A stretch of 64,000 nt of DNA from an uncultured Acidobacteriota bacterium (GTDB taxonomy: Bacteria; Acidobacteriota; UBA6911), in the NCBI GenBank assembly GCA_963809485.1, contig CAWEJX010000005.1, positions 1-64,000 of the forward strand, in the 5' to 3' direction. Made by a program: the position numbers and the translations under genes. Shown one piece after another: positions 20,593-25,715 of the stretch. Below the pieces are notes generated by a model. It had not been told where the DNA came from. It made no database searches and worked only from the letters and a program-made list of their open reading frames with translations. The number at the start of each line of letters is the position of its first letter. Position 1 is the stretch's first letter.

Positions 20593-22476
20593 ATGCTTTA
20601 TGGATATGCGGGAAAAATGCTCTTCGTGGACCTGAGTACAGGGTCCTTCCATGAAGAGGCATTAACCGAGCAAATCTGTCGCGACTTTATCGGGGGATAC
20701 GGCCTGGGCATTCGCGTGCTCTACGAACGGATGAAACCGGGCGTGGACCCGTTGGGCCCCGGCAATATGCTGGGCTTTGTCGCCGGTGTGCTCACCGGCA
20801 CCTCCGTTCCCGGAACCGGGCGATTCGGGGTTGTGACGAAATCGCCGCTGACGGGTGCCTGGAATGAGTCCAATTCGGGAGGCACTTTCGGCCCGGAGCT
20901 TAAAACAGCGGGCTACGACGCCGTTTTCTTCAGCGGTGTTTCCCCCAAACCGGTTTATCTGCTGATCCGCGATGGCCGGGTGGAAATAAGGGACGCTTCA
21001 GCGGTCTGGGGCAGGGAAACTTACGAAACCGAGGACATCCTGCACAGGGAAGCCGGAGACAGAGTGAAGATTGCGTCCATAGGCCCTGCGGGCGAGGCGA
21101 TGTCGCTGCTGGCCGGAATCGTGAATGAAAGAGGCCGGACCGCCGCGCGGGGCGGTTCAGGCGCCGTCATGGGCTCCAAAAGGCTCAAAGCAATCGCCGT
21201 CAAAGGCGGCCTGCAAAAGATTGCCGTGGCCCGGAAGGAAAAACTGAAAGAAGCCGAAACCCAATATATGTCGGTCATAAAGTCGAGCGAGTTTCATAAA
21301 GGCCTGACTGCGGCGGGCACAGGCGGCGCGCTGAGTTTCCTTCTGTCGATAGGCGATTCGCCAGTCAAGAACTGGCGCGCGACCGGTACGGACTCCATGC
21401 GCACAGCCGGCAACCTCGACAGCGGAAACATGAACAAATATAAAAAGAGCAGCTACGCGTGCCAGGCGTGCCCCATCCGCTGCGGCGCCATCATCGAGCA
21501 AAAAGAAGGGCCATTTGCCATCCCCGACGAAATGCACCGGCCCGAGTACGAGACTCTGGCAGCCCTGGGGAGCCTGCTCCTGAACGACAACCAGGAGTCG
21601 GTGATACGGTCCAACGATATCTGCAACCGGTATGGCATCGACACCATTTCCACGGGAACCGCCATTGCCTGGGCCATGGAATGCTACGAAAACGGCCTCA
21701 TCACGCGGGAGCAGGCTGACGGAATCGATCTCGCCTGGGGCAACGCGGAAGCCGTGGTTGCGCTGACGGAAAAGATGGCCCGAAGGGAGGGTTTCGGAGC
21801 GCTCCTGGCGGATGGCCCGGCCAAAGCGGCCGAGCGCATCGGCAAGGGATCCGAAAGGTACGTCATGGCCGTTCGGGGAAAGGGCATGGCGTTCCATGAC
21901 CCGCGCATGAGCCCCGCGGGAGGGACCGCCTTCATCGCCGACGCCAATCCGTCGCACCACATGAACAGCCAGATCGCCGGCCAGCTCGAAAACGGCGCCC
22001 CGGTGGGCAGCGATCCGGCGCTGCAGGTGCCCAAGGTGAACGCCTTTGCCGACTTTGACAAGAGGGGGCCCGTCTACGCCGTGGGATATGCCTATCAGCA
22101 GCTGATGGATGACGCCGGGATGTGCGCCCTGTACACCACCAACACGCCTCCTCCCGCGCTGGCGGAACTGATCGCTTGCGTTACCGGCTGGGATTTCCCG
22201 TGGGATGAAGCGCTCAAAGCCGGCCGCAGGGTTTTGACGCTCCGACAGGCGTTTAACGCCCGGGAAGGGTTGACGCCCGACCAGATCAATTTGCCTGCGA
22301 GGCTTGAAGATGAACCGCTGCCGTCCGGAGCTTCGCCTCCCCCGCGGATCGATTTCCGGGCTTTAAGGGAATCATACTTCGCCGCTATGGGGTGGGATAT
22401 CAAGACCGGCAAGCCCTCCCGGGAAACCCTCGCCGACCTCGGTCTGGCCGGCCTGACGAAGGATCTCGGCGGGTAG
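20593..22476 (+). CDS. aldehyde:ferredoxin oxidoreductase family (W/Mo-pterin) protein
   Basis: YAGKMLFVDLS, KSPLTG, SIGPAGE, AARGGSGAVMGSKRLKAI, CQACPIRC, PEYETL, CNRYGIDTIS. Confidence 0.92.
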   Translation: MLYGYAGKMLFVDLSTGSFHEEALTEQICRDFIGGYGLGIRVLYERMKPGVDPLGPGNMLGFVAGVLTGTSVPGTGRFGVVTKSPLTGAWNESNSGGTFGPELKTAGYDAVFFSGVSPKPVYLLIRDGRVEIRDASAVWGRETYETEDILHREAGDRVKIASIGPAGEAMSLLAGIVNERGRTAARGGSGAVMGSKRLKAIAVKGGLQKIAVARKEKLKEAETQYMSVIKSSEFHKGLTAAGTGGALSFLLSIGDSPVKNWRATGTDSMRTAGNLDSGNMNKYKKSSYACQACPIRCGAIIEQKEGPFAIPDEMHRPEYETLAALGSLLLNDNQESVIRSNDICNRYGIDTISTGTAIAWAMECYENGLITREQADGIDLAWGNAEAVVALTEKMARREGFGALLADGPAKAAERIGKGSERYVMAVRGKGMAFHDPRMSPAGGTAFIADANPSHHMNSQIAGQLENGAPVGSDPALQVPKVNAFADFDKRGPVYAVGYAYQQLMDDAGMCALYTTNTPPPALAELIACVTGWDFPWDEALKAGRRVLTLRQAFNAREGLTPDQINLPARLEDEPLPSGASPPPRIDFRALRESYFAAMGWDIKTGKPSRETLADLGLAGLTKDLGG

Positions 22477-22497: not shown

Positions 22498-22603
22498 GAA
22501 ATTACGCTGACCTACGCCGATCAAACGCTGACGCACGCTGAAAAAACTAGATATATTTTTTCGGCGTAAGTCAGCGGTTTGGTCGGCGTACGTCGGCGAA
22601 ATT
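22498..22603. repeat. full copy of the ACGCTGAC intergenic palindrome
   Basis: About four ACGC(T/C)GA units, an AT-rich core, and the mirror-image right arm. Confidence 0.8.
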
Positions 22604-22631: not shown

Positions 22632-24026
22632 ATGACGACGGCGACACAACCTGAAATTTCCGATTCTGAAAACCCTGAAACACGCGGCAAAGGCAAGGAA
22701 AAGCCCAATCTCCGATACGCATGGTATGTTCTCGCGATCCTGACCGGCATATACATGTGTTCGTACGTGGACCGGCAGATCCTGAGCCTCCTGGTTCCTT
22801 CCATCAAGAAAGACCTGGGTGTCAGCGATACGCAAATCGGGCTGCTGCAGGGACTGGCGTTTGCCCTGTTTTACACGTTCATGGGATTGCCCCTGGGGCG
22901 GCTGGCGGACAATTGCAACCGGCGCAACATCATCGTGGCCAGCGTCTTCGTGTGGAGCATATTCACGGCGCTTTGCGCCGCGACCAAGAGCTTCTTCTCC
23001 CTGTTCCTGGCGCGCATCGGCGTCGGGGTCGGTGAAGCCGGATTGAGCCCGGGCGCCTATTCCCTGATCGCCGACTTTTTTCCGAAAGACCGCATCGGCA
23101 CCGCCATCAGCATCTACTATTTCGGACTGTTTTTCGGATCCAGCCTCGCGCTGCTGGTCGGCGGCATAACGGTGGACGCCCTGGCGCGCACGCCGACAAT
23201 TACGGTGCCGATCCTGGGGGCAATTGCGTCGTGGAGAGTGACGTTTCTGATCGTGGGCCTCCCGGGGCTGCTGTTTGCGCTGCTGGCATTCACGATACGG
23301 GAGCCGGTGCGGCGCAACCTGATGCTCGGCAAGGATCTCAAGCCCGTCAAGGCAAGCTTCGGAGAAGCTTTCCGGCAGATGGGAAGGCGGTGGCAGTCGA
23401 TGGTGGGGATCCCCGTGGGGATGATATTTCAGTCCACCTGCAACTTTGCGGTCATGGCCTGGGTTCCGACCTATTTCCTGCGGGTTCACGGGTGGACGGC
23501 CGCTCAGACCGGGAAAGCCCTGGCAGTGATCATGATCGCCTTCGCCTGCACCGGCATGTACGTCGGTGGCTATCTGAGCGACCGCTGGCAGAAAAGGGGA
23601 GTCGCGGACGGGCCGGTGCGCGTGGCGCTGATCAGCGCGGTGGGAATCTTTTTCTTCCTGACGCCGGCTACGATGATTTCCGATGTGAGGATAACTTTGT
23701 GCCTGCTGGCCGTCGGGATGTTCCTGGAGTCATTCCCGATGGGCACGTCGGTGGCTGCGCTTCAGATAATATTCCCCAACCAGGTCCGGGGCCAGGTCGC
23801 CGCCGTGTTCCTATTCGTCCTGAACCTCGGCGGCCAGACCATGGGGCCCTTTTTCCCGGGCTTCTTGAACGACAGCGTGTTCCACAACGAAAATATGATC
23901 GGGGTGTCGATCTCGCTGACGATCGGCGCAGCGTCGATCCTGATGTTCCTGGTGTTCCTCGCGTCGGTTCGGCCCTACCGGCGCCACTACCAGATGATGC
24001 TGGACGGGGAATCCAGCCAGGTTTGA
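22632..24026 (+). CDS. MFS transporter (spinster-like)
   Basis: YVDRQILSLL, GRLADNCNRR (motif A), ARIGVGVGEA, LIADFFP. About 12 TM segments. Confidence 0.9.
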   Translation: MTTATQPEISDSENPETRGKGKEKPNLRYAWYVLAILTGIYMCSYVDRQILSLLVPSIKKDLGVSDTQIGLLQGLAFALFYTFMGLPLGRLADNCNRRNIIVASVFVWSIFTALCAATKSFFSLFLARIGVGVGEAGLSPGAYSLIADFFPKDRIGTAISIYYFGLFFGSSLALLVGGITVDALARTPTITVPILGAIASWRVTFLIVGLPGLLFALLAFTIREPVRRNLMLGKDLKPVKASFGEAFRQMGRRWQSMVGIPVGMIFQSTCNFAVMAWVPTYFLRVHGWTAAQTGKALAVIMIAFACTGMYVGGYLSDRWQKRGVADGPVRVALISAVGIFFFLTPATMISDVRITLCLLAVGMFLESFPMGTSVAALQIIFPNQVRGQVAAVFLFVLNLGGQTMGPFFPGFLNDSVFHNENMIGVSISLTIGAASILMFLVFLASVRPYRRHYQMMLDGESSQV

Positions 24027-24129
24027 TTTAACGCTGACATACGCCGACAAAAACGCCGACGAACGCTGATACAAATTGATATTTTTATCGGCGTATATCA
24101 GCGGTTTTGTCGGCGTACGTCAGCGTTAC
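24026..24129. repeat. full copy of the ACGCTGAC intergenic palindrome between convergent genes
   Basis: acgctgacatacgccgac...AT core...gtcggcgtacgtcagcgt. Confidence 0.8.
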
Positions 24130-24132
24130 AGT

Positions 24133-25494
24133 TTAGTGCTTGATTTTCTCCATCAGAGTTTTGTAGTCCGTTTCGAAGGTCGGGCAGCGGTCCGGAGTAT
24201 GACACTTCAGGCATAAATCCATGCCCGGCTTCGTCGAGGAGATCCGTGTGGCGTCGCTCAGGTGATCCTTGCGGAATCCGTGGCAGGATTCACACTGGAC
24301 GTTCATCAGTTCCGGCTGCTGAGTTTTCATGGCGAAGCCTTCGGGCTGCTCGAAGCGGGTGGTGTGGCAGGCAAGGCACTTGGGGTCGAACTGCTTCTGC
24401 TTGCCGACCAGCGTGCTGTAAGCCTTGGCGTGATCGGAGGTCTTCCAGTTTTTCACCTGGCCGGCATGGCACGGTTCGCACACGGCGGACCGCAGCGAGA
24501 CACTCGCGGGGGGCGGAGTATTTTCGCCCGTGCCGCCATAGATCTCGGCGATCTTGTCGTTGTATTCCGTAATCATCGCCTTCACCTTGGGATCGTCCGG
24601 GATTTCCTCACCGAAAGGAACGAGCGTATTGTGAATCGCCCGGGCCTCGTCCAGGGTGACTTCCAGCAGGCCCTGGTACTGGTTTTTCTCTCCCGCCTGG
24701 ACGATCAGAGTCTTATCGGCCTCGAACGGATCTTTGGTCTTCTGTTTGTCGTGCCCGCCCACAACCAGGTCTATGCCCTTCACCCTTCGGGCGATGACCC
24801 AGTCGCGGTTGGTCCCCTGGTGGGTCAAAGCGATCATGTAATCGACTTTCCCGGTGAGCTCCTTCACGATGGCTTCGGCGGCCTTCAGGGGATCTTGCAC
24901 GGAGACGGTTTCGCCGGTGATCTGCTGCACTTTGGACACCATTTCAGAGGTGTCCCCCATGACGCCGAATATGCCGACGTTCTTGCCGTTGACGTTTTTA
25001 ACAACGTAGGGCTTGAAAATCGGGGCGCCTTTGTCGTCCACCAGGTTCGCCGAAACAAACGGGAAGTCGTGCTTCTTTTCCAGTTGCTTGAGGTAATCGA
25101 CTCCCAGGACAAGGTCCATCTCGCCCACGTTGACGGCGTCGATTCCGATGTGTTTGAGAATCCGCACGATCAGATCCGCCTTCAGCTTTGCCGACTGCAC
25201 GACAGACTCGGGGATTTCCTCGTCTTCATTCAGCAAATCGCCTGAATCGATCACCACGAGGCCGCTCTGACTTTTCCGGTACTGTTCGAGATAAGCGGAT
25301 TTTTTGTACAGCCCTCCGAGCTGTACGCCTGTATCCATTCAACCGCACGGCTCAAGGTAACCCAGAATGTTACTGCTGTAGGCGACGGCCAGTTTGGGGC
25401 CGTCCGCGGCGCGCGAACTGTTGGTCGAAACGCTAATCGAAACAAGGGCCGCTGCGCACAAAAAGAAAAAGCACGCCAAAAAAAGTCTCTTCAT
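24133..25494 (-). CDS. exported selenoprotein: UshA/5'-nucleotidase-like domain with CGU motif plus tetraheme cytochrome c domain (453 aa, Sec at codon 52)
   Basis: ORFs 25339..25521 and 24133..25338 are in one frame, joined by TGA in GYLEPCG-TGA-MDTGVQLGGL. SECIS-like hairpin downstream, signal peptide, RBS AGGAGG, four CxxCH motifs. Confidence 0.85.
25297..25336 (-). promoter_or_regulatory. bacterial SECIS element
   Basis: 12 nt after the UGA: GTACAGCTC-GGA-GGGCTGTAC (9-bp stem with one G-U pair, G-containing apical loop), plus lower stem GGAT/ATCC. Confidence 0.8.
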
Positions 25495-25715
25495 CCAGCA
25501 CTCCTCCTGATGAACATACAAACTAATAACTATAGCAAGACTTGCGCAATTCCCTAAACATGAAAATCAGAAAATAGTCATCTGTCCGCATCCCCTGCTT
25601 TCTGAGATGCGCTGCGGCCCCGGAAGTCGCAAAAATGTCGTTCCCCGTTCCACTTTCCACAATTCACTTTCTACGCTGAACGTGGAGGGTGGAAAGTGGA
25701 ACGTGGAAGGTCGAG

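Follow-up and report, generated by a model that had tools for sequence, protein, structure and literature searches.

Does the TGA at positions 25339-25341 (minus strand) of this DNA separate two genes, or does it encode a residue of a single protein, and what might such a protein do? The window, by which we mean the whole stretch that was analysed, comprises 64,000 nucleotides (nt) of contig CAWEJX010000005.1 from an uncultured Acidobacteriota bacterium. A plain list of open reading frames (ORFs) gives an ORF of 60 amino acids (aa) at 25339-25521 and one of 401 aa at 24133-25338, which share a common frame and are split by the TGA. This TGA is codon 52 and the sole interruption of a 453-codon frame. 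On sequence evidence, the gene almost certainly encodes one exported selenoprotein of the UshA-like PCGU family, in which SelB would decode UGA-52 as selenocysteine (Sec), aided by a downstream hairpin. The read-through product of 453 residues is MKRLFLACFFF...AADG...YSSNILGYLEPCG-U-MDTGVQLGGL, and the residues flanking codon 52 are YLEPCG-U-MDTGVQLGGL. An earlier note, made from the letters alone, had joined the two parts into one frame with a signal peptide and a Cys-Gly-Sec motif, and had counted four haem motifs (CEPCH, CLACH, CESCH and CLKCH) near the C-terminus. The ORF list and the read-through translation bear out this description, and all four motifs are present. The features of the gene, from its outer limits to its haem motifs, are as follows.

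24133..25494, minus strand: complete coding sequence of 453 codons plus a TAA stop (24133-24135), read through one UGA; matches NF041198.
25503..25508, minus strand: Shine-Dalgarno sequence AGGAGG, 8 nt 5' of the ATG at 25492-25494, read from the sequence.
25405..25494, minus strand: putative Sec-type signal peptide, residues 1-30 (MKRLFLACFFFLCAAALVSISVSTNSSRAA, with DG following the predicted A-x-A-like cleavage site).
25345..25347, minus strand: Cys50 codon of the P-C-G-U motif, invariant in alignment A2 (48/48) and in alignment A3 (48/48).
25339..25341, minus strand: UGA, very probably Sec52, from the TGA/Cys column in relatives, congeners and other DNA contigs.
25306..25326, minus strand: hairpin of the type of a selenocysteine insertion sequence (SECIS), with a stem of 9 base pairs (bp) and a GGA triloop, 12 nt after the UGA.
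24535..25404, minus strand: remodelled N-terminal (metallophosphatase) domain of a 5'-nucleotidase plus linker helix, residues 31-320, from Foldseek, a PDB profile and Pfam.
24136..24492, minus strand: cytochrome c554-like tetrahaem domain, residues 335-453, from PF13435, the alignment to 1bvb and NF041198 positions 349-517.
24466..24480, minus strand: haem 1 motif C339-E-P-C-H343, invariant.
24364..24378, minus strand: haem 2 motif C373-L-A-C-H377, aligned to haem II of cytochrome c554, without a conserved distal His.
24280..24294, minus strand: haem 3 motif C401-E-S-C-H405, conserved in the family alignment.
24199..24213, minus strand: haem 4 motif C428-L-K-C-H432, conserved in the family alignment.

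The host genome (6.04 Mb in 21 contigs, 95.7% complete) carries the machinery on which a Sec reading depends. A tRNA-Sec with anticodon TCA was found at 70.6 bits, and profile matches to selA (565 bits), selB (391 bits) and selD (345 bits) all lie above the curated cut-offs. Note that the host selD (G000:C8:80982-81905) has one in-frame TGA itself, indicating that its selenophosphate synthetase is also a selenoprotein.

For comparison we used 80 related loci from contigs, with one genome per species. The codon-52 column holds TGA in 48 of these loci and a Cys codon in 31, that is, one or the other in 79 of 80, as the earlier note's reading would have it; the 80th locus (L042) is truncated. The motif reads C-G-(U/C) in 77 of the 79 and C-N-C in 2. 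Full-length database homologues have Cys at this position in 9 of 10 cases and Trp in 1. This last homologue, P0022, reads EPCGW, and the Trp is most likely a TGA rendered by a gene caller with another code, which would make P0022 a further hidden Sec form. The same single TGA is carried by three congeners (G209, G272 and G281). Contigs from three other DNA runs span the site at ~97% identity, with 25339-25341 unchanged among the 40 differences listed of 74. None of the outcomes that the earlier note had named as refuting its reading was encountered. Contigs from the metatranscriptome run X6 cover 24133-25271 at ~97% identity and end before the UGA; DNA carry-over is possible, and they were not used as evidence of expression.

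The hairpin GUACAGCUC-GGA-GGGCUGUAC (25306-25326) begins exactly 12 nt past the UGA, in agreement with the earlier note. The local fold around it has a free energy of -16.5 kcal/mol (z = -2.58), and 3 of 200 shuffled sequences were as stable. Of the 48 TGA loci, 37 have an uninterrupted stem of at least 7 bp with a GGN triloop behind the codon, compared with 0 of the 29 Cys loci that were classified, and stem length differs between Sec and Cys loci (Mann-Whitney p = 2.6e-4). In contrast, the difference between the two groups in minimum free energy downstream of the codon was not significant (p = 0.077), so that stem length and the GGN triloop are the sole features that tell the groups apart. 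The stem falls on different codons depending on the clade (QLGGLY here, GLARRAS elsewhere) while the spacing from the UGA is kept at 12-21 nt; conservation of the peptide therefore does not explain the stem. An Rfam scan of 24000-25700 with E up to 10 returned no SECIS family and only spurious matches of the miRNA/snoRNA type.

The alternative that the TGA is a real stop, leaving a small ORF and a separate 401-aa protein begun at the ATG directly after it (or else a pseudogene or a sequencing error), could draw on that ATG and on the 120 best database entries, of which 31 begin at this Met, 79 further in and 10 have the N-terminus, but it is extremely improbable and already contradicted: most Sec loci have a codon other than ATG directly behind the TGA, the 51 codons before the TGA here find their counterparts in full-length Cys homologues, the TGA is kept in the three congeners and in the contigs from the three DNA runs, the genome encodes Sec machinery, a Sec-specific hairpin follows the codon, and the 401-aa product would combine four CxxCH motifs with no signal peptide. 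c-type cytochromes need a signal peptide for haem attachment. A 401-residue product lacking one could not receive its haems, because maturation of c-type cytochromes needs export.

Is the protein new? On the NCBIfam equivalog model NF041198 (UshA_like_PCGU) it scored 357.7 bits (E 9.7e-107), above the cut-off of 275. The genome search with this model gave 350 bits summed, with model positions 3-270 on the N-domain and 349-517 on the haem region (137.3 bits). As the model spans both parts, the tetrahaem fusion belongs to the curated family and is not new. The present protein and the 'UshA-like (seleno)protein' of NF041198 agree in the P-C-G-U motif, in an N-domain like that of 5'-nucleotidases and in the tetrahaem region at the C-terminus; the sole difference is a segment of ~78 model positions (271-348) between the domains that has no counterpart in this protein. 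A 2008 paper on the GOS selenoproteome lists 'COG0737, UshA-like, CxU' with 76 Sec and 92 Cys sequences (PMC2398784), and a table in a 2026 review lists 'UshA-like protein, NF041198, CxU' (PMC13188914). There is thus no novelty at the family level: this is a catalogued selenoprotein family, as the earlier note had stated. That note had also called the gene hidden. This holds for plain ORF callers only: 110 of the 120 best relatives in the database lack the N-terminus. It does not hold for NF041198, which already names the family with its tetrahaem part.

At E <= 1e-30 the family comprises 825 cluster representatives (50% identity), and at least four CxxCH motifs are present in 139 of the best 150 representatives. 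Two metagenome-assembled genomes (MAGs) of Acidobacteriaceae (L027 and L028) have a P-C-N-C motif and a match that ends at residue 336. Both of these, and likewise P0123, a representative of 294 aa, seem to be without the tetrahaem domain. Other members are fused to N-terminal DUF1573 Ig-like domains (5 representatives) or to a C-terminal TPR (5 representatives), fusions that would point to protein-protein contacts. A stand-alone exported tetrahaem c554-like paralogue (G000:C9, L103:1432-1887) scores 131 bits on NF041198 positions 398-519. A DUF1573 protein (L103:2181-2681) is encoded ~290 nt downstream of it on the same strand; in five other clusters DUF1573 is fused N-terminally to UshA-like tetrahaem proteins.

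What remains of the nucleotidase? An AF2 model built on the 48-sequence alignment reached a predicted local distance difference test (pLDDT) of 85 and a predicted template modelling score (pTM) of 0.80. Its signal-peptide region consists of a helix (2-22) and a low-confidence stretch (23-30), and the N-terminus aligns to full-length Cys homologues. The best Foldseek matches were the 5'-nucleotidases 3ive, CD73 and UshA (best E 2e-24, to ~1e-21) over the first ~325 residues, including the linker helix 302-319, with a template modelling (TM) score of ~0.55 over ~325 columns. In a PDB profile search, solved 5'-nucleotidases scored 122 bits versus 74 bits for SoxB, and the Pfam Metallophos model matched the N-domain at 21.9 bits. 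The UshA model NF007109, which has a cut-off of 600, gave 59.9 bits.

Profile alignment to solved 5'-nucleotidases placed motif I (DxH) on N42-I-L44 and GNHE on G124-E-M-D127, with DSGD, LTH and GGH kept. The altered and retained motifs given in the earlier note were therefore correct apart from the counterpart of DxH, which it had read as S-N-I. Pfam detected no 5'-nucleotidase C-terminal substrate domain in the protein; residues 335-453 form the cytochrome domain. With E. coli UshA, CD73 and the putative nucleotidase c4898 (PDB 3ive, 1ush, 4h2i) the protein thus has in common the fold of the N-domain, the long helix of the linker, and DSGD, LTH and GGH, but it has N-I-L for DxH, GEMD for GNHE and four haems for the C-terminal substrate-binding domain, and has gained a Cys-Gly-Sec loop. 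An identity as a 5'-nucleotidase was rejected, given the loss of motifs I and III and the replacement of the substrate domain by a c554-like domain; the protein works on another principle than these enzymes. Outside the haem motifs, the only residues invariant in 48 diverse members are C50, G51, U/C52, G60, G61 and G85.

The C-terminal domain matched PF13435 (cytochrome c554) at 62.5 bits, compared with a gathering threshold of 20.8, and aligned to cytochrome c554 of Nitrosomonas europaea (1bvb, E 1.9e-9; also 1ft5). The two have four CxxCH motifs in the same order, and H355 and H411 fall on the His residues of 'HAKA' and 'FRxDH' in c554. They differ in that cytochrome c554 is a free electron carrier, whereas the ~120-residue domain is here fused to an enzyme-like domain. 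Candidates for distal His ligands are H355 (48/48), H411 (48/48) and H453 (43/48), three for four haems. No conserved distal His is left for haem 2 (C373xxCH377), whose counterpart in the alignment to cytochrome c554 is the five-coordinate haem II.

Where does the Cys-Gly-Sec loop lie relative to the haems? For complex prediction we used a natural Cys-form homologue, P0007 (66% identical), with alignment A3, which holds natural Cys-form proteins only. The two parts of P0007, residues 31-325 and residues 326-452, were folded together with four haems, which were not scored. The domain pair reached an ipSAE of 0.66 (0.64-0.69 in three runs) versus 0.01 for the best control. Among solved complexes, 116 of 157 attain this ipSAE mark, compared with 2 of 215 mismatched pairs, a calibration that is rough here as a custom alignment was used and ligands were included. 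At least 87% of the contacts were common to the runs and the partner pLDDT was at least 91. Note that the two halves belong to one natural chain, so that the result concerns the packing of domains, not a binding event. We know of no like solved complex that the prediction could have remembered.

On the N-domain side, the predicted interface consists of residues 50-53 (the C-G-C loop), 58, 95-105, 270 and 312-320. On the cytochrome side it consists of residues 364-372 (leading up to the first haem-2 Cys), 381-391 and 434-437 (just past the His of haem 4); residue 52 contacts residue 435. The model thus supports an arrangement in which the Cys/Sec pair would face the haem domain. The earlier note had held that the protein is not a nucleotidase and couples a Cys/Sec pair to a haem wire, a view that gains support from the lost motifs, the missing C-domain and the predicted interface with residues 50-53.

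With which partner might such a pair exchange electrons? Three fusion proteins of ~1200 aa (P0125, P0134 and P0144, 41-42% identical to one another) consist, in order, of a UshA-like domain with P-C-E/D-C, a DsbA-like domain, a Cys-rich stretch and a UshA-like CGC domain with four haems. The DsbA-like motif is CPHC in P0134 and CIHC in P0144. Pfam DSBA matches on the fusions were marginal (23-26 bits); hhalign aligned the fusion DsbA domain with the DsbA-like proteins of the host at 96.1% probability (E 3.3e-9, 141 columns). A stop-to-stop six-frame search of the 80 loci (872 kb) with a DsbA profile returned 7 ORFs, all on the same strand as the UshA-like gene and 0-106 nt from it (L045, L046, L043, L037, L087, L092 and, weakly, L084), and no DsbA-like ORF away from the UshA-like gene. 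The motifs of these ORFs are CGHC in two Nitrospinota loci, CGSC in two deltaproteobacterial MAGs, CPHC in two gammaproteobacteria including the cultured Hahella (L092), and CPPC, in a weak match, in one Syntrophaceae locus. Proteins of the DsbA type are the only recurrent redox neighbour and fusion partner in the wider family. The host genome itself encodes three exported DsbA-like proteins, and its SurA_N plus DsbA protein is 31% identical to the Hahella operon partner over 322 residues (E 7e-52).

Two further gene orders were observed. In Hahella (L092:4107-4595), the pair of DsbA-like and UshA-like genes comes after a gene for an OsmC-type peroxiredoxin. In a gammaproteobacterial MAG (L047:3492-5373), a Cys-form gene comes after those for cytochrome b and c1 (bc1 complex) on the same strand.

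We tentatively read the protein as a haem-wired Cys/Sec thiol/selenol-disulfide oxidoreductase of the periplasm, a role that is plausible while falling short of probable. The Cys50/Sec52 pair would alternate between selenolate/thiolate and selenenylsulfide. The pair is a two-electron centre, and the four haems would pass single electrons between it and the pool of cytochromes in the periplasm; they could relay electrons to or from the pair because of its predicted position, at the interface to the haem domain. The partner would most likely be a thiol/disulfide, notably that of an exported DsbA-type protein with a thioredoxin fold, and either direction is allowed, with oxidation of DsbA-like thiols or reduction of disulfides. 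The Mia40/Erv1 relay delivers electrons to cytochrome c, and Erv2 has a Cys-Gly-Cys shuttle. The logic proposed here may be likened to that of Mia40/Erv1. The role proposed here would be the same as that of DsbB and VKOR, which are quinone-linked, and of the FAD-linked Erv1 and Erv2, namely that of a small dithiol or selenol-thiol shuttle working with a thioredoxin-fold partner and a redox cofactor. In contrast to these systems, with which it has no homology, the present protein is soluble and has haems in place of quinone or FAD.

Extended to the family, this reading would make the UshA-like PCGU/PCGC proteins a third, haem-based route for periplasmic disulfides beside DsbB and VKOR, with a Cys-Gly-Sec/Cys shuttle on a dead nucleotidase scaffold, DsbA-type partners and four haems leading to or from the respiratory cytochrome pool. 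We regard this wider proposal as possible yet doubtful.

Several observations weigh against the oxidoreductase reading. DsbA adjacency is confined to 7 of the 80 loci, where four of the seven ORFs were themselves seeds of the DsbA profile (those at L037 and L092 were not), and six of the seven are Cys forms that are 26-34% identical to this protein. Neither the window nor the 16 closest loci (L021-L036) have a DsbA-like neighbour. The interface was predicted for the homologue P0007 rather than for this protein, with unscored haems. In the portions available, PMC2398784 and PMC13188914 list the family and assign it no function. The subfamily of this protein keeps D86, E125, H225 and H248, so that a metal may take part. 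Finally, 7 of 10 congeners have VKOR, and two of these seven (G272 and G281) carry the UshA-like gene as well. As the two genes occur together, the protein is not a simple stand-in for VKOR.

The distribution of the known DsbA oxidases was as follows, with tallies that include the unpublished genomes G023, G048 and G146. The host genome, at 95.7% completeness, gave no match to DsbB or VKOR, and DsbB was found in 2 of 41 genomes of the class. The congeners G209, G312 and G314 gave no DsbB/VKOR match. The VKOR ORFs of the seven other congeners are ~450-500 aa long and probably represent VKOR-thioredoxin fusions. A role as the sole DsbA oxidase, replacing DsbB/VKOR, was rejected, since there is no complementarity with VKOR.

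The main rival to the oxidoreductase reading is an enzyme acting on a small chalcogen compound or oxidant, in which the Cys/Sec pair would work beside a haem that is open or has a thiolate ligand. It would reduce or oxidise an inorganic species such as polysulfide, selenite, thiosulfate, sulfide or peroxide, and the haems would serve as the wire. We consider this rival unlikely. Its precedent is the multihaem cytochrome c selenoprotein MccSep, which uses a Cys-ligated haem and an essential Sec to reduce polysulfide and selenite in the periplasm (PMC13510729). Like the present protein, MccSep (PDB 9wt8) is periplasmic and has c-type haems, one catalytic Sec and a nearby Cys; it differs in its unrelated fold and family, its five haems, its tetrameric state and the location of the Sec inside the cytochrome domain. 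We found no homology over the catalytic region, and the sequence likeness is limited to a haem motif (profile positions 306-341, E 0.005). The missing distal His at the haem aligned with c554 haem II and the predicted position of the CGU loop at the haem-domain interface would suit such an enzyme. So would the genomic setting: the gene's own clade (the window and the 16 closest loci) has no conserved operon partner, as expected for a stand-alone enzyme, the neighbours being housekeeping and envelope genes. However, genes for sulfur, selenium or metal handling do not recur beside the 80 loci, and the sole recurrent redox neighbour and fusion partner is DsbA-like. The thiosulfohydrolase SoxB (TIGR04486) is the best non-family NCBIfam match, but its 94.8 bits lie far under the cut-off of 550, and solved 5'-nucleotidases outscore it in the PDB profile search.

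A metalloenzyme is a distinctly improbable alternative. Here D86, E125, H225 and H248 would bind one metal and Cys50/Sec52 would replace the ligands of site 1, giving a Sec-ligated centre of redox or hydrolytic type that the haems feed, or else a metal(loid) site, which the earlier note had offered as one of its two options. The former metal-site-2 residues D86, E/D125, H225 and H248 show a bimodal pattern that would fit this idea: 25 of 48 members, among them this protein and every close relative of it, have the full set, and 15 of 48 have lost all four. The position of Cys50/Sec52, in the loop after motif I at the former dimetal site, would fit as well. Yet the 15 members without the four residues retain CG(U/C) and four haems, which argues that the shared chemistry needs no metal. 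In addition, motif I has lost its D (now N42) and its H (now L44), GNHE has M126 in place of its His, and metal-handling genes are among those that do not recur near the loci.

The immediate surroundings of the gene remain to be described. Its neighbours in the window encode an MFS transporter, an FKBP lipoprotein and a TPR_21 protein, and also YceD, PlsX and an aldehyde:ferredoxin oxidoreductase (AOR); at the other loci LptD recurs in 9, DciA in 8 and TamB in 4. The MFS transporter is syntenic in L021 and L022. The AOR gene (20593-22476, plus strand), of the tungsten type, lies two genes from the selenoprotein gene, and an AOR gene again adjoins the orthologue in L026 (L026:3702-5615). Between the convergent MFS and selenoprotein genes lies a perfect hairpin of ~100 nt (24029-24128; -64.7 kcal/mol, z = -12.75); positions 22523-22594 were noted together with it. 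The arms of the hairpin at 24029-24128 are repeated at no fewer than 40 places in the genome with 84-100% identity; it looks like a member of a REP-like family of extragenic palindromes and possibly doubles as a bidirectional terminator. A scan for sigma-70 promoters returned 0 sites, and terminator-like sites were not commoner than in shuffled sequences.

In conclusion, the window gains one exported selenoprotein of 453 residues in place of a 60-aa ORF and a 401-aa 'cytochrome' without a signal peptide. The UshA-like PCGU family to which this protein belongs is large and occurs in many phyla. If the DsbA link holds, the family would tie periplasmic oxidative folding or disulfide reduction directly to c-type cytochromes. 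The third, haem-based route, if true, would be what bacteria have in place of the relay by which Mia40/Erv1 feeds cytochrome c, and in anaerobes selenium would make the exchange faster.

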